From Nanobdellota archaeon (GTDB taxonomy: Archaea; Nanobdellota; Nanobdellia; SCGC-AAA011-G17; PNOQ01): DNA of 64,000 nt. Both the position numbers and the translations under genes were made by a program. The stretch spans positions 682-64,681 of the forward strand of contig JAHJUI010000005.1 of NCBI GenBank assembly GCA_018829185.1. The letters are read 5' to 3'. The notes under the pieces are model-generated. The model made no database searches, had not been told where the DNA came from, and saw nothing but the letters and a program-made list of their open reading frames with translations. Positions 12,487 to 43,566 of this stretch are shown one piece after another. Within the stretch, counting starts at the first letter, position 1. The number at the start of each line of letters is the position of its first letter.

Positions 12487-12729
12487 TTATAAAAGCTTTG
12501 AATGACCAAAGTGAATAAGCAAATCTATGTTTTTTACATTTGGAATGTCGCAAGCACCATAGTTTGAGCCAAACCAAATAAGAATTTTTGCTTTTGTGTT
12601 TTTTTCTAAGTATTTTGCAATAAAAGTAGCTTTTGGTTTTAAACCTGCAGGTAATTGTATTAAAACGGTTTTAGGTTTTTCTTTGTTTATTTTTTCTGCT
12701 ACTTCTTTTAGCTCTAGTTCGAATTCCAT
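12487..12729 (-). pseudogene. dph2: N-terminal fragment of diphthamide synthase Dph2 (2-(3-amino-3-carboxypropyl)histidine synthase)
   Basis: KTVLIQLPAGLK ... NYGACD ... LLIHFGHS match conserved Dph2 N-terminal blocks. The ORF stops after 80 aa (full length is about 330 aa). Downstream space is occupied by the RHH cassette. Confidence 0.5.
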
Positions 12730-14451: not shown

Positions 14452-17400
14452 CTACTTTTTCTTTTTGTGGTAATGTCCGTGTCCAATTGATTTTATTGCA
14501 AAAAAAGTACCTAAGGCTATTATCCCTATTAATATTACTAATCCTATTAGACCAAATGTTTTTAGATTTTTATTTAATTGAATCCCTTCTCTTAATTCTG
14601 GACTTAATCTTGGTTCTATTTTTTCTAATTTTGCAGTTATTATTCCTTCTGTTTCTGAAAATGTTATTAAAACATCAGAATATCCATCTTCATTTATATC
14701 TACTTTTCTTTCTTCTGTGTTTTCTATTATTATTTCTAATGTTATTTCATCCCAAATAAATTTGATTGTGTCTCCTAACTCTAATTCTATTTCTCTTATT
14801 TCTAAGTAATCGTAATCTACTAAAAATGAATTTGGTCCTTCTTCAGATTCTGGGGGGGGTGTCTCTCCTCCTTGTACTCCTGATCCGCTTGTTGAAGTTC
14901 CTGCTGTTGCAGTAGGAGTTTCTCCTGCAGTGTAAATACTGAAAGAGGTTACATTAAATATAAAATTGTTATTTGTATATGAAACTTCTGTGCAGTCTGA
15001 ACAAACTGCTCCATCTTTCAAAACTCTTGGGTTTGTGAATGTTAAGTTATAAAGAGTTAATGTTGCTGTTGTGTTTAGTTCAGGTAATGCTGTAGAATTA
15101 ACTTCTATTCTGTTTTGACTTATGTTCACATTATTATCTAAATTTGTCCCATTTGATAAATCTACATTTGTTGTGAAATTTATCATTCCTAAACTTGGGA
15201 CTTCCATTATTAGATTTGATATGTTTGATACATTTACTTGAGATAGATCTGTTGTGTTTCCCGAGAATTCTGAATTAGTTATAACTGAAAATGTTCTTAA
15301 TCCTGTTGTATTCATGTTTGGTGTGTAGTTTCCTCCATGGAATGTGTAGTTTACTACGTAATTTGTATTAAAGTTGTAGTCAGTGCAATTTATGAACCAA
15401 GCGTAGTTCCCTGCTGCCAAATTATTTATTGTGAAGTTTGTATTTAGGTCTTTTACCATGCTCGTATTTGATTGATTTATTGCATTATTAAAAAAGAATG
15501 TGCAGTTTTCTATTGTAGATGCGTCTGTTACGTTGAAAATGAAAGTTATATTTCCATCTGTGTCTCCTGAGTCATTTGATGGGGAAACTATATTTATTCT
15601 TGGTGGCATTCTATCTATTGTTACGTTTGCACTGGATAACTCTTCTTCTGTTATGTAGTATACTTTTGTTATCTCATCTGAGAGGACTTCTACCTTTGCA
15701 CGTCCTTTACTATCATTGTAATAACTTCCGTATCCTGCTGTAAATGCTAAGCCATATCCTGCGTTTCCCACTACTATATAATGTGTTTTGTTCTCTATCA
15801 TATCTGTAAATAAGTGATCATGTCCAAGGAACATTATCCTTACATCATTGTCTACCATCATTTGTTGTATTGTTGCTTGTTCTCCAGAATATGCTGCTCT
15901 TCCTCCTCCACGACCGTATTTTGTCCATGCTGCAGCTGCTGCTCCTGTCCAATTTCCTCCGGCTGTGTGATGAATTATTACAAATTTCCATGGTTCTGTT
16001 GCATTTTTTAATGTATTATTAAACCAGGTTAATTGAGTAGAACCTAATGTCCAGTTTTCCATGCTATTATCTGATGGATTTACAGGAGTGTAGCTCATTA
16101 CATTTAAAACAATAAATAAAGCATTCCCCCATGTGAAAGCATAGTAATCTTCATAATCTCCTCCGCCCTGAACGTAAGTTGTATTAGTTGGATTGGGTAC
16201 GAATTTTTGCCTTATACTTCTTGCTAATGATAAGTTTGTAGAATCTATCCAACCCGGTTCTCCTTCCCAATTACCAATTGCCATTAAAAAAGGAATTGAA
16301 TTATAATCTGGATGTAATGATTCTCTTAAAAGTACATATTCTGAAGTTGCCCATGTTTCATTATTAATAGCCCCATCTCCCACTCCTGGTTGTATATTGT
16401 CCCCTAAGGACATAACAAAATCTGAATTATCATTTAAAGACATATTTGCTAAAATCTTTTTTAAATCTGCTGAAGTTTCTGGCCAAGTGGGATCTACATG
16501 CATATCTGATATTAATGTAAAATTAAATGGATATGATGCTCTTCTTGTTCTAAAAGATCTTTCATCTGTTGTTGCATATGTTGATTCATCTAATCTTTTA
16601 GACCTTACACGATAATAATAAACTGTGTTTGTTGTTAATCCAGTTATATCAAATTCTATTAATGTGTCATTTGTTACATTTTGAACTGTTGTTGTATCTG
16701 AATAACTTCCTGCAGCTCCAGAAGTTGATCCATATTCTACGTACGTTGAGGAGTTTTCATGGCCGTTAATTAAATTTATAGTTATTGAGGTATTTGAAAC
16801 TTTTCCCATTAAATCCATGGAAGTCATATTTGGGAAAACAGATTTATAATCAAGAGTTACATTATATAATTCTGGGGTATAAGATATATTGTCTGTTTCG
16901 AAATCAAATTTATATTGGAAATATCTATTACTTGCAATTGATAATTGTTGAGGTGTTGCATCATCTACTGAAGTAAAGCTTTCTCCGCTGCAAACGCTGT
17001 CATCGCAGGATTGTACAGAAAGATTTAATTTTAATGCTCCTCTTTTGTAATGGTTTAGGATTTCTGCTGCTGTTAAAGATCTATTGTATATTGCTACTTC
17101 ATCCATTGTAGCATTTGGTGCAAATTGATTTGTTATTGTTCCTATTGTTATGTTGTTTGTGCTAGCTGCTAGGTTTCCTGTATGGGTTGTGCTGTTTTCA
17201 AAGACTCCATCAACATATAATAGCATATCTGAGCTATTGTAAACTGCAGCAATATGGTGCCAATTTGTATCATTAAAAGTTGATGCTGTATCAATTGTTT
17301 TCCCTGTACCTGTTTTTATCCCAAATCTTATATGTTGGTTATTGGCTATGCCAATTACGTGCCAAATAATACCAAGAACAAATGAAGTAGTTCCTTCCCT

Positions 17401-18048: not shown

Positions 18049-20199
18049 TTACTTATATCTTAGTTTTTTAAAAAATTCTGTTTTTAATAAAATTGTAAAG
18101 ATTATCCCAATTATAAGGGCTATTATTAGGATAATTACTGGCACTAATGCTTTGTTTAAAGGTATTTCGTTATTTATTTCTTCTCTTTCATTATCTTGTT
18201 CTTTTACTTCTTCTTCTGTTACTTCTTTTTCTACTTCTACTTTTATTTCTGGGCTATATGTTTCTATTGATATTGTTGCTTCTCTTCCTTCTATTTTTTC
18301 TAATGTGATGGTTATTTCTTTTTCTCCATCAAAGTCTATGTCTATGTCTTCTTTATCTCCTATGTAGAGTCTTAATTCTATTTTTTCTGAATAGATTTCA
18401 AAATCTACATAGTTTTTGTCTATTTTTTTAACGTAAATATTGTGTGTTTGACCATTTAGGATTAATCTTATTCTGCCATTTGAGTTTAATGTGTAGTTTT
18501 TATCTTCTCCACGAAATACTTGTTGAGGATTTGGAATTGAGCTGCTTGGAGTATGAACTACTGGAATAACTGGGGAAATACTAATTGTGTGCTCTGAACC
18601 TAAAGTTAAAACAAAATCTAATTGCCCTTCTGATTGTGTAAATGTGCAGTTTGCAGTATTGCAATTTATTCCATCATAGGTTGCAGAATAAGTTGTAGCA
18701 TTATTTGACATCTGAACAGTTATGTTTGTTGTTCCAGTTCCGTCTAAAACTATGCTTGCATATCTTGAATCTCCCACTGTTGATGTTGAAGATAATAAAT
18801 TTATATTATTATTTGTAATGTTTTTTATTTCTGGATCTGATGTAAAAAGATATGTTAAATTAAGGTAACTAGGATTAGATACATTTGTTTTCAAGAATGG
18901 ATCATCCCCCCCCAATTTAAATGAAAGCCAATACCATTCTGTTCTATTATAAATCCAATAACCTAAATTTATTCTTTCATTTGTCCATTCGTATTGTGTT
19001 GTGTTAGATATGGATTTACCATAATCTGCTAATTTGGACCAAGTTGCATGTTTTTGAAAGCCCACATAATTTCTATCATCTGTTGTTAAGTTGTACCAAA
19101 AAGACATATTTACATTTACTATTCTTGAAATGCCAGTTATGCTCTCTGATATATTATCTATTGCCAATTGAACCCAAATAGCGCAAGTACAAAAATTCTC
19201 ACCGCTAGTTGGGGCTTCAAATTTGATTGCTTTTGAATCTTCTCCGTAAGTTGAAGGTTGTCCATGACTGGGATATTGTCCTGGCCTAAAATAATAATTT
19301 AAAGTAGATTGGTTTCCTAAGTAAAATCTTTGTTTTATTATATTATTTTTGTTATCTGTGACATTTAATACAATAGAATATAATCCTTGTCTTGAGGCTG
19401 TAAAGTTTATTGTTATCTTATTTCCAGACGTGCTATAAGAAACAGTTTCATTTGGATCTGTTTCAACAGAGTTAACTGTATAAGTATTGATAGCTGTTTC
19501 ATTTGGATACATTATATAAACATCAAAAATTGTTTCTTGATTCGGAAATAATGTTCTGTTATCTTCAGGATTAAACATTATATTTACTTCGCTTAAAAAC
19601 TGGTTATTAGTATAATTATTACTTATATAATTATCAAATATAGAATTTACGTTATTAGAAAAAATATTATCTGCTATATTGTTTAATACAGCTGGACTTC
19701 TTCCTCCAGCATGTAAAAAAATACCTACTATGTTTGAATTAATTGTGTTGTTTGTTATAGGGTTATTAACCGAAAAGACAGAGTTAATCCCATTATGTAC
19801 ATTATAAGAAATTGAGTTATTATGGATGGTTCCATTGTCTGCATTTTTTAAGTGAATTCCCATACCAAATCCAGTTATATTGCAATTCCTAATGGTTATA
19901 TTGTCATAACCTAATGCATTGTCAATACCAAAATCATCTATAACTATCCCTGCTCCAAAATCTGCTAATGTACTGTCTCCAACTATGTTAAAGCCATTAC
20001 AATCTAATACTAAATTATGGGCTCCAATATTGACCCCATCTGCTGTACAACCGGTTAAACTATTTGACATTGTCCAACTAGAAGTTAAAGTGTCTGCACA
20101 ATTACATGATGTTGCTCCTCCGCAGTTTGCTGCATTCACTGAGTAAACAGATACTAAAAATGATATTAATAAAATAAAAAATACTCTCCTCTTTTCCAT
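18049..20199 (-). CDS. secreted right-handed beta-helix (pectate-lyase-fold) surface protein with C-terminal TM anchor
   Basis: Signal peptide. Repeated NITIRNCNITGFGMGIHL / NNSISYN / NNTINSN beta-helix repeats. C-terminal TM plus KKLRYK. Many N-glycosylation sequons. Confidence 0.55.
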   Translation of the reverse strand: MEKRRVFFILLISFLVSVYSVNAANCGGATSCNCADTLTSSWTMSNSLTGCTADGVNIGAHNLVLDCNGFNIVGDSTLADFGAGIVIDDFGIDNALGYDNITIRNCNITGFGMGIHLKNADNGTIHNNSISYNVHNGINSVFSVNNPITNNTINSNIVGIFLHAGGRSPAVLNNIADNIFSNNVNSIFDNYISNNYTNNQFLSEVNIMFNPEDNRTLFPNQETIFDVYIMYPNETAINTYTVNSVETDPNETVSYSTSGNKITINFTASRQGLYSIVLNVTDNKNNIIKQRFYLGNQSTLNYYFRPGQYPSHGQPSTYGEDSKAIKFEAPTSGENFCTCAIWVQLAIDNISESITGISRIVNVNMSFWYNLTTDDRNYVGFQKHATWSKLADYGKSISNTTQYEWTNERINLGYWIYNRTEWYWLSFKLGGDDPFLKTNVSNPSYLNLTYLFTSDPEIKNITNNNINLLSSTSTVGDSRYASIVLDGTGTTNITVQMSNNATTYSATYDGINCNTANCTFTQSEGQLDFVLTLGSEHTISISPVIPVVHTPSSSIPNPQQVFRGEDKNYTLNSNGRIRLILNGQTHNIYVKKIDKNYVDFEIYSEKIELRLYIGDKEDIDIDFDGEKEITITLEKIEGREATISIETYSPEIKVEVEKEVTEEEVKEQDNEREEINNEIPLNKALVPVIILIIALIIGIIFTILLKTEFFKKLRYK

Positions 20200-20234
20200 G
20201 TATAAATTAAAAGAGCTTTTGTTTATATAGTTTT

Positions 20235-21202
20235 CTAATCAAATAAGCTAGAAACAGACTCTCCACAATGAATTCTGCGTATTGCTTCTGCTAATAAGGG
20301 TGCTATAGAAACAGTTTTTATTTTCTTTATTTGTTTAAATTTTATTGAGTTTGTTACAATCACTTCTTCTATATCTGGGTCTTCCATTCTTTCAAATGCT
20401 GGGCCTGCAAAGTCTCCATGGGTGAATGAGAGGTATATTTTCTTTGCTCCACTTTGTTTTAATGTTTTTACTGCAGCTATTAAGGTTCCGCCAGTCATTA
20501 TCATGTCATCCATCATAATTACATCTTTTCCTCTTACATTTCCTAAAATAATTGCTTCTTGGACTTTGTCATGACCTTCTAATTCGTATGATCTTTTTTT
20601 ACTTATTATTACAAAGGGTAAATGTAGCTTTGAAGCTAGTTTTGAATTTATTTTTACTCCGCCTTCATCTGGTGCAACAACTACAAAATTTTTTAGATTC
20701 ATTCTTTGAAAATGTTTGGCTAAGATGGGCATTGCGTATAAATTATCGCAAGGAATATCAAAAAAACCTTGGATTTGGCTTGCATGTAAATCTAAAGTTA
20801 GAATTCTATCTGCTCCTGCTGCAGTTAATAAATTTGCTACTAATTTAGCTGTAATTGGTTCTCTAGAGGCTGCTTTTCTGTCTTGTTTTGAATAACCGTA
20901 CCAAGGCATTACAGCTGTGATTCTTCTTGCAGATGATCTTTTTAATGCGTAGATGATCTTTTTAATGCGTCAATCATGATTAAAAGTTCCATTAAAGTTT
21001 CATTTGCTGGATTAGAAGTTGATTGTATTATGAAAACATCTTTTTCCCTCATGTTTTCTTTTACCCTTACATATGTTTCTGAGTTTGCAAATTTGTCTAT
21101 TTCTACTTTTGTTAAAGGTATTCTTAGAATTTTAGATATTTCTTGTCCAAGCTCTGGGTTTGATGTGCCACAAGTTAACTTTATGTTGTTTCTGGTTATC
21201 AT
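20235..21202 (-). pseudogene. prs: ribose-phosphate pyrophosphokinase (PRPP synthetase) disrupted by a 20-bp tandem duplication
   Basis: Two ORFs (20942..21202 N-terminus, 20235..20909 C-terminus) together make a complete Prs. Removing one copy of AGATGATCTTTTTAATGCGT restores DALKRSSARRITAVMPWYGYSKQDRKA, the conserved Prs block. With the duplication the frame ends ...ALKRSSTH*. Confidence 0.75.
20931..20970. repeat. exact 20-bp tandem duplication (AGATGATCTTTTTAATGCGT x2) inside prs
   Basis: Directly visible in sequence. The length is not a multiple of 3, so it causes a frameshift. Confidence 0.9.
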
Positions 21203-21247: not shown

Positions 21248-22279
21248 TTAACTTATACTTTCGGTTTCAATTTTTTCTAAATCACAGAAATTTGTTGTGA
21301 AGTTATAAGCTCCTGCATTTAAGAAAGTTAAAATATCTCCGACTTTTGGGTTTTCTAAGTAAACCCTATAGCGGAATAAATCTAATGAGCAAGGAGTTAT
21401 TCCTTTTATCACAAATGGTTTTCCTTGGCCTTTTTCTAATTCTCCTTCAACTAAAAGTTTTACAGGAACTATCAGAGCGTCCATGTCTGAGTTGTAAATT
21501 GATGCATTAACAATAATGTTGTTTTCATAGATTGCTACAATTTCTGTTTGTAATTTTATTGAAGGTGCTGAGATAAATCTTCCTGGTTCGATTATTAGTT
21601 TTATATTTTTTTCATTAAGAAATTGTTTTAACTCTTTTATTTTATTGAAAATTGTTTGAATTACATCTTCATTTGTGTTTGCGTAAACTGCTGGAATTCC
21701 TCCCCCAATATTTACAAAATCTATGTTTTTCCAGTTTTCTTCTTCTACGAAATGTTGCAGTTCATATTTTAAATTCCATTCAGATAAATTTTGGGTTTTT
21801 CTATGGAAGTGTATTCCTAGGTTATTGATTTGATTGTTATTTTTTAATTCTTTTAGATATTTATTTATTTTAATTGAATCCATTCCAAAAACAAAATGTT
21901 TTTCTGTTCTGATTGTATTTTCTTTGTATTTTGCTCTTAAAAGTAAATCTATTTGAATCTTATTTTCTTTTAGAAAATCTAATAATATATTTAAATCTTG
22001 TTCATTATCTACAATAAACGTTTTTATGTTTAAATCTGTTAGTTCTTTTATATCTTCTTTTTTCCATGCTTGAGCTAAGAATATGATTTTTGATTTATCT
22101 TTTACATGTTTTAATTCATTAAAAAAATGTACACTGAACATTGAATCTGTTTCTTTTTCAAGTATTTTAATAACTTCTTGATTTGTTTTTGAACTATAAG
22201 AAACTATATCTGCATATTCCTTTACTTTATTATATTGTTCAAGAACTTTTGATTTTGAAAGAAGAAATTTAGGTTTCAT
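21248..22279 (-). CDS. PLP-dependent decarboxylase of the Orn/DAP/Arg (alanine-racemase-fold) family; possibly a carboxy(nor)spermidine/ornithine-type decarboxylase
   Basis: YSSKTN (PLP-Lys region), VNIGGGIP (GGG motif), NAGAYNF (GAY motif). Overlaps and is co-oriented with dys. Confidence 0.55.
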   Translation of the reverse strand: MKPKFLLSKSKVLEQYNKVKEYADIVSYSSKTNQEVIKILEKETDSMFSVHFFNELKHVKDKSKIIFLAQAWKKEDIKELTDLNIKTFIVDNEQDLNILLDFLKENKIQIDLLLRAKYKENTIRTEKHFVFGMDSIKINKYLKELKNNNQINNLGIHFHRKTQNLSEWNLKYELQHFVEEENWKNIDFVNIGGGIPAVYANTNEDVIQTIFNKIKELKQFLNEKNIKLIIEPGRFISAPSIKLQTEIVAIYENNIIVNASIYNSDMDALIVPVKLLVEGELEKGQGKPFVIKGITPCSLDLFRYRVYLENPKVGDILTFLNAGAYNFTTNFCDLEKIETESIS

Positions 22280-23214
22280 TTCAATAAACCTTCTTCTTTT
22301 AACTGTTCTAAAGCAGCGATCATTGCTATGGGGAATGTTATTGTTACATCTCCAATTACAGTTGCTACATCTGATTCATCTTTTACTTTTCCCCAAGATT
22401 TTGCTTCGTTTGTTGTTGCTCCTGAAACAGATCCGCTTGTTTTATGGGCTGTTGTCATGTAAACTGCGTAGTTTGCCCCTCCATTTAGTAATGTACAAAG
22501 AATTGCATGATGTTTTGAAAGTCCTCCTCCAAGAGCAATAACTCCTTTGTTTTCATCTTGACTTGTGGATAATAAAATATTTCCAAAGTCTTGTACTGGG
22601 TCTATTATGAAATCTGGATGCTTTTGTTGGAATAAATATAAATGGAAACCCAATCCTCCATCTGTTATTGCTGGACAGAAGATTGGAACATTATTTTTTG
22701 CTGCTTGATATAAAATTGAATCTTCATCATTAAGCATTAAACCAATTTCTTTTATGAAATCTGAAATTGCCCAACGTTTCTTTTTTTCATATAGTTTATT
22801 TAAATATTCTAACATTAAATCTTCAAAACGCATATAAGTTTCATTTGTTAACAATAGATTTCCTATTCTGTTTACTCCTTGTTCATGTAATTCTACATCA
22901 TCTTCATTGAATGTTGCTATTTTGAATTTTTCTCCATTTGCTTTCATTATATCTTCTTCTATTGAACCTGTTGTTGTTACAATTACATCTGCCATTTTTA
23001 GTTTAATTAATTGAGCAAAAAATCCTCTTAAACCAGAGGTAACCATATTTGATGTAAAAGTTAAGAAGATTTTAGCATTGTTTTTTTTCATTTTTACAAA
23101 TACTTCTGATGCTTTTTTTAGTTCAATACTTTGGAAACCTATGTTTTGATATGAGTCTACTAACTCTTTAACGTTCATTCCATGCTTCCATTTAAAGTCT
23201 TTAACAAATGCCAT
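22276..23214 (-). CDS. dys: deoxyhypusine synthase
   Basis: FLTFTSNMVTSGLRG and the NAD-binding Rossmann-like blocks are characteristic of DHS. 312 aa. Confidence 0.85.
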   Translation of the reverse strand: MAFVKDFKWKHGMNVKELVDSYQNIGFQSIELKKASEVFVKMKKNNAKIFLTFTSNMVTSGLRGFFAQLIKLKMADVIVTTTGSIEEDIMKANGEKFKIATFNEDDVELHEQGVNRIGNLLLTNETYMRFEDLMLEYLNKLYEKKKRWAISDFIKEIGLMLNDEDSILYQAAKNNVPIFCPAITDGGLGFHLYLFQQKHPDFIIDPVQDFGNILLSTSQDENKGVIALGGGLSKHHAILCTLLNGGANYAVYMTTAHKTSGSVSGATTNEAKSWGKVKDESDVATVIGDVTITFPIAMIAALEQLKEEGLLK

Positions 23215-23319
23215 TTTAAAAAAAGTAGAAACTAACTTGATCCTCTAATGTTGTCATCAAGTGTTGATTTCATGTGTTTTTGGTAAAAATAAAGGTTTAA
23301 AAATCTTTTTATTTACCTT

Positions 23320-24927
23320 TTATGAAAGAATATTATACAAATCACTTAAATTTAATTCGAAGGCAGCTACTGGCGTTTCTAATTCAAAATTTGTTAAAAC
23401 TTTTGGATGTAATTCTCCTAAATATGCTACTTCTTTGTCTTTAACACTTAATCTTGCAACTCTTCCAGGTATAAAACTTGGATGTTCTGTTTCTTTTATT
23501 GTATATTTTAAGTTTAGTTCAGAAAGTAATGAATCCAGGATTTGCCTTACATAGGTATAATCTACTTTTGAATCTGCAATTAAAACACAAACTCTTGATT
23601 TTTCTTCTGGTGTAAAAACATCTCCGATTTCAAATATTTTTTGGGGTAATTCACGGTGTTTATTTTCTGATAAAACTTTTAGCAAACTAGGAGTTAGCCA
23701 AGCACGCATAACATTATAATCTTGATTTAATGCATTTTCTAGTTCAACACAATTTATTTCGGTGTTCATTAATTTTGATTGTGACTTTTTATTTGTTAAA
23801 TTGTAAGTATTTGTTTCTAGTAAACCAAAACCTACAAGAATATCTGCTACTTTGTTTTTGAATATTTCAAAAGTATCTTCTTGAGCTATTGTTGAAACAT
23901 TTGGTAATTCTTCTTTGAAATTTTCATATCCATATGCTATTGCAATATCTTCTGCTATGTCAATTTGAGTTAAAATGTCTGCCCTATAAGCAGGATAGAA
24001 TACATTTGGTTTTTTGTAATCCATCCCCATTTTAGAAACTAAAGTTTTTATTTGAGAATCTATTAATTTTAAGCCCAGAATTTTATTAATGTAATCTCTG
24101 TTTATTTTTATTTTTTTAGGTTTTAAATTAGGGAATGTTTCTTTTTCTATTTTTACAGAATAAATTTTTCCATTTCTTTCTGCTAAACTTGTTACAATAA
24201 TGTTTAATGCTTGTTCGATTGTGTTTTTATCAGTGCCTGTAACATCAATAAATAAGTTCTTTGTTTTTTCAGTAACTCTTGTTTCTTCCGAGTTGATTAT
24301 TGGAGGCATTGAAAGTACTTGATTATTTGCATCAATCCAAATTGGATATTCTTTAAAATTATCAAGTAAATATGCATGGTCTTTTCCTTTTGGATGGATT
24401 TCCAGTATTTGTTTTAGAGTTATTGGTTTATTTGTTTCTAATGGTGTGAATTTAAATGATTGTGGTTTTGTTGTATATGTAATTGGGAATTTTATTTTGT
24501 CTAAATCATAAACCCCAATAGATGCTTTTTTTCTGTTTCTTCCATGAGTTGAATGTAATTTTTCTTGTACTTGCATTAAGGATTCGATTGCTTCATCTGT
24601 TAAGTTTACATCTTTTACTACTGCTGCAACTGCAAATGGTCTTACTTTTGATGTTTTTTTGTCTATTTTAGCTATGTAATCTGAGGCTTTAACAGAGTAG
24701 GTTCTAAGGCCTTTTTTTGTTCCTATAAAGGATGCCAGTGCACGTGAAAAACCCTCGCTAGAAAGCAAATCTGGACGATTGGGGAATATCTCTACAGTGA
24801 TCTCACCTTTAGTTACTTCTTCTAAATCTGTACCTAAACGGGATATTCTATCTTTTAGTTTTTCATCTGATAGGGATTTTCCTATCTGTTTCAATACATC
24901 CTGTTTGTTTAATGTTATTGTTGGCAT
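23320..24927 (-). CDS. pheT: phenylalanine--tRNA ligase beta subunit (archaeal type)
   Basis: B3/B4 and B5 domain blocks. Likely start is MPTITLNK at 24927, immediately after the stop of the upstream gene. About 535 aa. Confidence 0.88.
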
Positions 24928-24928
24928 T

Positions 24929-25474
24929 TTAATTTGAGCAGCAACATGCAACTCCGGCTCCTAATAAATTTGTTTCTAATGATTCACATAATTGTTCTTC
25001 TGAAAATAAGGTGATTTTATCTATTGATTCGCAAGGTTTTTCTATTACTAGAACTTCTTCACAGGTTCCATAATTATATCCTTCTTCATGACAGGCCTCA
25101 TTACACCCTAATTTATTAACTTCTATTTTGCAAGCTATTTCAGACCATTTTAATATTTCTTTGACTTGATTTACTCTGTAATACATATAAAAGGGAAGTG
25201 GTTTGTATTCAAGTTTTTCACAATCATAAGGTGTGACTGTTTCATTATTTTCTATTTTCTTTTTTAAAATATACATTTGACAAGAAGGTTCTAACCATTT
25301 AGTTTGTTGGCATAATTCCATTGCTTCTTCATAATTTCCTTCGTTAGTTAATTTTATTGTTTCATGATAGATTTTATCTATTCTTTTAGAATCAAAATAG
25401 TAAAATAGTGCAATAATTGCTAGTAGGATTATTATAATAACTATCCAAAACCACCATTTTTTCAATATTTTCAT
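24929..25474 (-). CDS. membrane-anchored Cys-rich hypothetical protein
   Basis: N-terminal TM helix. Multiple Cys, including a C-terminal CCC. Confidence 0.45.
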   Translation of the reverse strand: MKILKKWWFWIVIIIILLAIIALFYYFDSKRIDKIYHETIKLTNEGNYEEAMELCQQTKWLEPSCQMYILKKKIENNETVTPYDCEKLEYKPLPFYMYYRVNQVKEILKWSEIACKIEVNKLGCNEACHEEGYNYGTCEEVLVIEKPCESIDKITLFSEEQLCESLETNLLGAGVACCCSN

Positions 25475-28029: not shown

Positions 28030-28836
28030 TTAAACACTTGGCAACTTTGACCAAGTGCTTTTTAGTAAAGAATCTACTGTTGATGCAAATGCTGGTGAGT
28101 GTGCCCAAATTCCAATGTCTGAACTTTCATGTACTTCTTTGTCATCATTTAGCATAAACATTAATTGGGTGCCATCGATTAAAATAAATCTTGCACCAAT
28201 CTTGTCTGCTCTTTTAACATCTGCGAATTTAGCTAATTCTTTTGCAGCTAATTCTGCTTTTTCACTTTCTAGCTTTGCAATAATCTTAACTTTAACACCT
28301 TTCTCAGAAAGTTTCTTTAAAGTATATTTTAAACTGTCTGCTTTTTTGACTATGCCTGTTGAACTGGTCATGATAACAACTGATTTTTTAGCATCTTTAA
28401 GCATAGTTTCCATATGATTGTAAATATTGTATCTTCCTTTTATTGCTCCAGAAACATTGTGAGCATCTACATGATTTACACCATTTTTGTATAAAAGACT
28501 TAATTCAGAAAATACATCTTCTTTTTTTATCTTATCTAGGCTTTCAACTTGTTGATCTGCTGATTTCTTAATATGTTTCTTAACTCTTAACACGATCTCA
28601 CTTGGTTCAACAGCAATATATTTTATTGGTTTTCCAAGCTTCATTATAACAAAACCGCGTTTTTCTAAGCTTTCTAAAATATCATAACTTCTTGATCTTG
28701 GTACGTCTGAAATGTCTGAAAGTTCTCCTGCAGCTGCAATACCTTTACTTAACAATGCAGTCCAAATTTTTGCTTCATAAATGTTTAAATCGAATGCTGA
28801 TCTGATTTTTTTGATAAAATCTTTGTCCATTATCAT
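28030..28836 (-). CDS. TrmB-family transcriptional regulator
   Basis: N-terminal wHTH LNIYEAKIWTALLSKGIAAAGELSDISDVPRSRSYDILESLEKRGFV plus a C-terminal sensor domain. Confidence 0.7.
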   Translation of the reverse strand: MIMDKDFIKKIRSAFDLNIYEAKIWTALLSKGIAAAGELSDISDVPRSRSYDILESLEKRGFVIMKLGKPIKYIAVEPSEIVLRVKKHIKKSADQQVESLDKIKKEDVFSELSLLYKNGVNHVDAHNVSGAIKGRYNIYNHMETMLKDAKKSVVIMTSSTGIVKKADSLKYTLKKLSEKGVKVKIIAKLESEKAELAAKELAKFADVKRADKIGARFILIDGTQLMFMLNDDKEVHESSDIGIWAHSPAFASTVDSLLKSTWSKLPSV

Positions 28837-43438: not shown

Positions 43439-43566
43439 ATTTTGTTTAAACCCCCTCTTTGTTTATAAACATTTCTATATTTTACTGTTCTCTTTTTATA
43501 TTAAAATTAAAGGATTTTGTATATAAAAAGGTTTCTTAGGGGTTATTTTGTTAGTAATCTCTTGTT

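Follow-up and report, generated by a model that had tools for sequence, protein, structure and literature searches.

In the Nanobdellota archaeon studied here, the gene for PRPP synthetase (prs) carries an exact 20-bp tandem duplication, which breaks its reading frame and is confined to one of two closely related haplotypes (haplotype A). We consider it likely that this gene represents a genuine, inherited loss-of-function allele in one Nanobdellota (DPANN) lineage of Fennoscandian deep groundwater, and that the loss is tolerated through dependence on a host. PRPP synthetase converts ribose 5-phosphate and ATP to PRPP and AMP, and it is essential in most free-living organisms. The gene was analyzed in a 64-kb stretch of DNA (64,000 nt, referred to as the window), which has a GC content of 30.5% and encodes several archaeal markers, namely deoxyhypusine synthase, an archaeal-type PheRS, a proteasome subunit, a CPSF-like beta-CASP nuclease and a CCA-adding enzyme.

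A 20-bp tandem duplication splits the prs reading frame

The frameshifted gene, a class I ribose-phosphate diphosphokinase gene, lies on the minus strand at 20235..21202 and is 968 nt long as found; minus the duplication, it would comprise 948 nt (315 codons and a stop). On the plus strand, AGATGATCTTTTTAATGCGT starts at 20931 and again at 20951, and it has no other occurrence in the window. The resulting doublet (20931..20970) shows a period-20 match run of exactly 20 bases, or 2.00 copies, with no extension at its edges and no flanking microhomology. It is the sole exact tandem duplication of at least 12 bp across the 64-kb window, and base composition predicts 1.3e-6 such events by chance at a period of 20, or 8e-4 when all periods of 15-60 are allowed.

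Read on the minus strand, the junction consists of ...ATGATTG, ACGCATTAAAAAGATCATCT, a second ACGCATTAAAAAGATCATCT and then GCAAGAAGA. The copy met first by the ribosome (20951..20970, minus strand) occupies gene positions 233-252, which correspond to codons 78-84. The second copy (20931..20950, minus strand; gene positions 253-272) is absent from haplotype B, the sister haplotype, and from every ortholog. Its presence displaces the reading frame by +2, and two foreign residues (TH) later a TAA is read, such that the prs frame is interrupted by a stop after 86 codons. The N-terminal fragment ORF (20942..21202, minus strand) encodes 86 aa, composed of native residues 1-84 plus TH, and ends in ...DALKRSSTH followed by the stop. 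The C-terminal fragment ORF (20235..20909, minus strand) encodes the 224 aa of native residues 92-315; it starts at the internal Met92 and begins MPWYGYSKQDRKA, and no ATG, GTG or TTG start was present in its frame upstream of Met92. Residues 85-91 (ARRITAV) are encoded by neither ORF. Removal of one 20-bp copy in silico yielded an uninterrupted 315-aa protein with DALKRSSARRITAVMPWYGYSKQDRKA. These results bear out the original prediction that a 20-mer repeated in tandem at 20931..20970 cuts the gene into ORFs of 86 and 224 aa, and that dropping one copy restores the Prs segment: the exact match positions and the ORF coordinates agree with it, and the segment is present in the 315-aa product.

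The repaired protein is a class I PRPP synthetase

The repaired 315-aa protein scored 407.3 bits against NF002320 (cutoff 297), spanning profile positions 3-315 of 316, and 388.6 bits against TIGR01251 (cutoff 113). As encoded, the N- and C-terminal fragments scored 98.8 and 280.5 bits against NF002320, respectively, both under the cutoff of 297. Residues 5-314 of the repaired protein aligned with residues 8-316 of Bacillus subtilis Prs (PDB 1dkr) at an E value of 1.3e-93, while the match to the archaeal class III enzyme 1u9y was far weaker (E 2e-39). Its Pfam domains are Pribosyltran_N (PF13793, residues 7-123), Pribosyltran (PF00156, 153-255) and Pribosyl_synth (PF14572, 212-314). The N-terminal fragment covers positions 1-79 of the 117 in the Pribosyltran_N profile, and the C-terminal fragment covers positions 86-117, thus carrying the end of the N-domain together with Pribosyltran and Pribosyl_synth. 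Alignment to 1dkr and 5t3o revealed that the substrate-binding motifs are conserved (the xQDRK loop, DLHA and the PRPP loop DDxIxTxGT), and Q100, D101, K103, H133, D225, D226 and T230 are invariant within the clade. Family profiles, Pfam domains and the 1dkr match therefore agree with the initial assignment of the gene as prs.

The Prs of this clade is of the bacterial class I type, with 64-99% identity within the clade. Beyond it, the nearest homologs are bacterial, of approximately 50-53% identity, the best being Omnitrophota and Clostridia proteins at about 53%, which suggests that the clade's class I Prs may have been acquired laterally from bacteria. Among GTDB species representatives, the best prs matches were approximately 50% identical and mostly bacterial; the archaeon's own species was not retrieved.

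The duplication is present in independently assembled contigs

An exact protein look-up found the two fragment proteins side by side in six distinct contigs (L001-L008), which come from ENA ERZ27247117 (k141_118057, a 65-kb contig that is essentially the window itself), SRR6514730, SRR10598174, SRR10598173, SRR26275509 and JGI 3300015370. They were assembled by MEGAHIT-style (ENA), Logan (the four SRR runs) and JGI pipelines. All six contain the exact 40-bp doublet, are continuous through the duplication site and are 99.89-100% identical to the window. They represent three SNP variants: the window type, one contig with a single SNP (L004) and one with seven private SNPs (L005, from JGI 3300015370). 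The same junction was thus obtained from at least three distinct read sets by three assembly pipelines. De Bruijn-graph contigs hold only k-mers that are present in the reads. The 20-bp repeat is shorter than k, for which the contig name k141 indicates a value of 141, and the reads must therefore contain the junction k-mers. Furthermore, the co-occurrence of the duplication with seven private SNPs in the 6.4 kb of L005 indicates that the allele has been passed on while its lineage diversified to some extent.

An assembly, polishing or scaffolding error, in a true genome with only one copy of the 20-mer, might have explained the clean edges of the duplication, which are without microhomology; untrimmed joining of overlapping contigs can create exact short tandem duplications of this kind. 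However, such an error would have had to produce the identical doublet six times, in contigs that derive from six runs or samples and three pipelines and that show three SNP backgrounds. In addition, the repeat is below the assembler k, the contigs cross the site uninterrupted, and there is no other such duplication within the 64 kb. We rejected untrimmed contig overlap on the grounds that the window lacks a further exact tandem duplication of at least 12 bp and that the six independent contigs agree. An artefact of any of these types has a negligible probability, and the assembly-artefact reading included in the original prediction is excluded by the doublet's presence across contigs, pipelines and SNP backgrounds. 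As judged from the assembled contigs, the 20-bp prs duplication is biological, not technical. We also searched JGI metagenomes with a pattern that allowed 0-20 bases between the flanks; this search returned only the known intact contig Ga0180732_1002370 and missed the known Ga0180009_10016222, such that its collection or index is incomplete for finding carriers or revertants.

A closely related haplotype retains an intact prs gene

The 90%-identity protein cluster includes intact Prs members of 314-316 aa. One of these, P0123 (NCBI MBU3940637.1, 'Nanoarchaeota archaeon', the NCBI name on the MAG proteins), is one residue apart from the repaired protein and is encoded in four assemblies that have the gene order of the window (haplotype B: L010-L012 and GCA_018901245.1). 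Haplotype B contigs are 99.4-99.7% (about 99.6%) identical to the window and carry a single-copy, intact prs; SRR6976411 and JGI 3300020171 are among the runs with this allele. A consistent set of differences from the window, common to all of these contigs, comprises SNPs at 19035, 20230, 20298, 20361, 21174 and 22170, the deletion of 1 bp at 18906 and one 20-mer fewer. Haplotype and copy number correspond perfectly, with two copies in 6/6 A contigs and one in all B contigs, and copy number is linked with the SNPs at 20230, 20298, 20361 and 21174. All four outgroups (L009, L044, L045 and L046) are single-copy at prs, and the duplication is therefore derived. Across the contigs compared, the lesion proved to be real, derived, reproducible across samples and tied to one haplotype. 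The examination of orthologs in sister genomes, which had been put forward as a check along with the original prediction, thus found a single copy in both haplotype B and the outgroups.

The three A/B substitutions in prs, one non-synonymous and two synonymous, are all derived on A. Among them is an Ile10 to Thr change (21174, minus strand), derived on the duplication haplotype at a position where every relative has Ile. Pairwise Nei-Gojobori dN/dS values for prs were 0.06-0.13 (about 0.08) for every clade pair, with dS up to about 2. These low values in all relatives indicate that prs is normally under strong purifying selection. Beyond the frameshift, the broken gene has only three A-branch substitutions, one of which changes an amino acid, and it is otherwise undamaged. 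Such a lack of further decay, together with the existence of an intact sister that is ~99.6% identical, indicates that the duplication is recent.

These comparisons also bear on whether another PRPP synthetase is encoded elsewhere in the genome, in which case loss of the bacterial-type copy would be neutral and silent on host dependence. A class III Prs is typical of archaea, which makes a further gene conceivable, and the Prs of the window is a class I enzyme whose nearest homologs beyond the clade are bacterial. However, a redundant gene would not be expected to show the dN/dS of about 0.08 that prs has in every relative, and neither a second prs nor a PRPP-using enzyme was found in the 64-kb window. 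An intact, 91%-identical Prs was encoded by L045, from the same sample, in the order prs, two metallophosphatase genes and a small Diphthamide_syn-like ORF. This parallel gene order indicates that it is the orthologous locus of a co-occurring sister population, not a paralog. From the relatives and the 64-kb window, compensation by a second copy appears unlikely. In the window, the corresponding 80-aa ORF (approximately 12487..12729, minus strand) matches Pfam Diphthamide_syn and resembles a gene fragment, but it is conserved at 78-80 aa in L009, L044, L045 and L046, and is probably a genuine small gene.

Several further differences among these genomes were observed. A and B are approximately 99.9% identical outside two dense SNP clusters at 25255..25342 (18 differences in ~90 bp) and 28417..28657 (14 in ~240 bp), which are located in a 181-aa ORF without a Pfam match and in the gene of a TrmB-like regulator. 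From their sequences, these clusters resemble short tracts that a more distant relative contributed by recombination. GCA_018901245.1 contains approximately 1.7 kb of extra DNA (L013 6633..8361) at window position 43484..43490, which is absent from the window and encodes a 580-aa ORF without a Pfam match. The outgroup L009 (SRR27458548) is 97.9% identical to the window over prs and the neighbouring NosD-like gene (18064..21187) and only 91.6% identical in the adjoining DHS/decarboxylase/PheRS region (21269..24798), and it is without the two metallophosphatase genes. This mosaic similarity suggests that recombination may have occurred at the prs locus.

Neighbouring lesions and the possibility of reversible switching

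Directly downstream of prs is a gene for a NosD/beta-helix surface protein (18049..20199, minus strand), which contains a G8 tract at 18906..18913 (C8 on the plus strand). Both the window and the outgroup L009 have G8, with the gene in frame, whereas 3/3 haplotype B contigs have G7, which splits the gene into 435 and 281 aa. Each haplotype consequently has its own frameshift, in adjacent genes. This tract could be a slippage-prone contingency tract in a genome of 30% GC; another 8-nt G run is found at 14852, within an 1181-aa LamG/metallophosphatase gene. On the other side of prs, the adjoining Orn/Arg-decarboxylase-like gene (21248..22279, minus strand) has a nonsense mutation in L005 at 21321 (Leu320, TTA to TAA), with the loss of 24 residues. 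Of the seven private SNPs of L005, five are non-synonymous or nonsense.

Slippage, or recombination between the copies, can remove one unit of a tandem duplication precisely, and such a removal here would return the gene exactly to its wild-type form. With the G8/G7 variation of the NosD-like gene as a hint of slippage-prone loci, it is conceivable that the prs doublet is gained and lost at a high rate, as a reversible on/off switch resembling bet hedging by phase variation. Such a switch should let copy number vary independently of linked markers. At the contig level it did not: copy number followed haplotype perfectly, in 6/6 A contigs and all B contigs, and the contigs included no revertant on the A background and no three-copy form. 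Moreover, no ortholog has the duplication, and a two-copy 20-mer is atypical of contingency repeats. Reversible switching is accordingly very unlikely. All other A/B indels across the window are 1-5 bp in length, and we rejected tandem duplication as a recurrent mutation class for this reason.

The interrupted gene is predicted to lack PRPP synthetase activity

An AlphaFold model of the 98%-identical protein P0001, based on an alignment of 58 sequences, had a pLDDT of 87.7 and a pTM of 0.87, with a pLDDT of about 96 at the break. The model places a helix at residues 67-83 and a strand at 88-93, which are 66-82 and 87-92 in the numbering of the repaired protein. The missing residues 85-91 would thus comprise the turn after the helix and almost an entire core beta-strand in the N-domain. 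On the basis of this model, assembly of an active split enzyme from the two fragments is unlikely.

We also considered that prs might still be functional, either as a split enzyme produced by re-initiation at Met92 or as a Prs with a 7-residue insert in helix 66-82, produced by a -1 slip. Both ORFs are otherwise undamaged, and the duplication allele persists across samples. The first-read copy contains TTA-AAA-AGA (20957..20965, minus strand), a hypothetical slip site that includes a five-A run where both frames are open, and the only place for a frame-restoring -1 slip. The computed product of this slip is a 322-aa Prs with the insert KIIYALK and no stop, and seven residues would amount to about two helical turns. 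Evidence against these possibilities was found at each level. Residues 85-91, a confidently modelled core strand, are missing from both fragments, and by eye there is no Shine-Dalgarno-like motif before Met92. Inspection of the frame overlap found no canonical X XXY YYZ heptamer, leaving single-tRNA slippage on AAA only. The predicted RNA structure at the junction is no better than that of shuffled sequences (MFE -15 kcal/mol versus a shuffle mean of -17.4; z = +0.79). Finally, all orthologs are in frame, and there is thus no hint of an evolved recoding signal. We rejected programmed frameshifting as an evolved feature on these grounds, and we regard residual function by either route as highly improbable. 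Activity, or peptides spanning ...DALKKIIYALKRSS..., would back the functional reading.

Discussion

Thus, it appears most likely that the prs duplication is a null allele that represents an early stage of gene loss. We infer that PRPP synthetase activity was lost, that this loss is tolerated through host dependence, and that replication misalignment generated the duplication. According to this model, a 20-bp stretch within the region for the N-terminal domain would have been duplicated in tandem in haplotype A, after which translation would shift frame beyond residue 84 and halt two codons on. Even if both pieces were made, ARRITAV would be lost, and no active enzyme would be expected. The allele would have arisen once, after A split from the ~99.6%-identical B, and would have been transmitted clonally since. 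Cells of haplotype A would obtain nucleotides or PRPP-derived products from their host or community, and this outside supply may leave only weak selection to keep or restore prs.

The mutational mechanism is an assumption on our part. Inverted repeats near the duplication are weak, AT-rich and only 7 nt long. Since the edges have no microhomology and only these weak inverted repeats are present, replication misalignment remains a guess. The original prediction had proposed, among its readings, a recent slipped-strand event. The recent origin is supported by the intact sister and the scarcity of decay in the broken gene, and the slipped-strand part shares the status of a guess. Genuine gene decay in a nucleotide-scavenging symbiont, another of the readings proposed at the outset, fits as well, and the two are mutually compatible.

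The environmental context is consistent with tolerance of such a loss. DPANN MAGs of these groundwaters were reported to be without nucleotide, amino-acid and lipid biosynthesis (PMC8275790), which makes it plausible that loss of PRPP synthesis could be tolerated. The proposed Maxwellarchaeum has the haplotype B genome GCA_018901245.1 as its closest neighbour in GTDB (85% ANI), and the order of Maxwellarchaeum, SCGC-AAA011-G17, was described as keeping almost no central metabolism (bioRxiv 10.64898/2026.05.13.725050). The preprint on the complete Maxwellarchaeum genome makes no mention of PRPP, prsA or K00948, and PMC13014828 has nothing on PRPP. GCA_018901245.1 originated from Olkiluoto at 367-384 m depth, and SRR6976411, which also has the intact allele, is Olkiluoto groundwater. 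Among the duplication carriers, SRR26275509 is from Aspo borehole SA2600A at 345 m (PMC11484514), and JGI 3300015370 belongs to a Dopson-lab JGI project. The collection sites that are confirmed, for one carrier and for two samples with the intact allele, suggest an Aspo population that has the null allele and an Olkiluoto population that has the intact one.

A more speculative proposal is that the duplication renders PRPP synthesis reversibly or leakily 'off' or 'dim' in an energy-starved episymbiont or, in a weaker form, that it constitutes a natural population-wide knockout. If so, the ATP-consuming Prs would be shut while the cell is attached to a nucleotide-supplying host, and it would be recovered when one repeat copy is lost or when, on rare occasions, the ribosome slips by -1 on the A run, the latter yielding a Prs with the heptad insertion. 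In the weaker form, a knockout lasting several years in situ would demonstrate that a DPANN archaeon can do without PRPP synthetase. We view this proposal as distinctly unlikely.

If the allele is null, as we favor, comparison of A with B could show the extent to which these cells rely on a partner for PRPP and nucleotides. Annotations should treat the two ORFs as one gene and mark it as a frameshifted prs pseudogene, without counting two genes, and metabolic reconstructions should not credit the haplotype A lineage with PRPP synthesis.

Comparison with known systems

The repaired protein resembles B. subtilis Prs from end to end, aligning without large gaps and sharing the motifs YGYxxQDRK, DLHAxQIQGFFDIP and DDxIxTxGT and the three Pfam domains. 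In contrast to the B. subtilis gene, the frame in the window is broken after residue 84, leaving seven residues that are unreachable from either ORF. The host is also archaeal, although the closest homologs beyond its own clade are bacterial.

Similar to dnaX, in which -1 frameshifting occurs at A AAA AAG, prs has an A-rich stretch in the overlap of the two frames, where a -1 slip would give a full-length product. Unlike programmed -1 frameshifting, the prs site is without a canonical heptamer, a stimulatory structure or conservation among orthologs. The duplication likewise resembles the contingency loci of Neisseria and Haemophilus, in that the frame is switched off when a direct repeat within a coding region changes in copy number, a step that is, in principle, precisely reversible. 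It differs from these loci in having one or two copies of a 20-mer, which are haplotype-linked and show no switching in any sample, and in affecting a housekeeping enzyme, not a surface protein.

The closest likeness is to the pseudogenes of reductive genomes in symbionts and parasites. As is the case for lineage-specific pseudogenes, the disruption is derived with respect to intact orthologs, and the same lesion is found in all six contigs, from six runs or samples. The prs lesion is a 20-bp tandem duplication, whereas the usual lesions are homopolymer indels or point nonsense mutations. It has also struck a gene that is essential in most free-living cells, and it is so far polymorphic within the species, not fixed in it. 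Nevertheless, the features in common are substantial: a single inactivating frameshift in a host-dependent organism with a small genome, intact orthologs in the closest relatives, and other recent lesions nearby, i.e., the NosD-like frameshift in B and the decarboxylase-like nonsense mutation in L005. A frameshift pseudogene in a symbiont is a well-known kind of event; what makes the present one interesting is which gene was hit, along with the availability of an almost isogenic, intact comparator, and reductive evolution has probably been caught here at an early stage.
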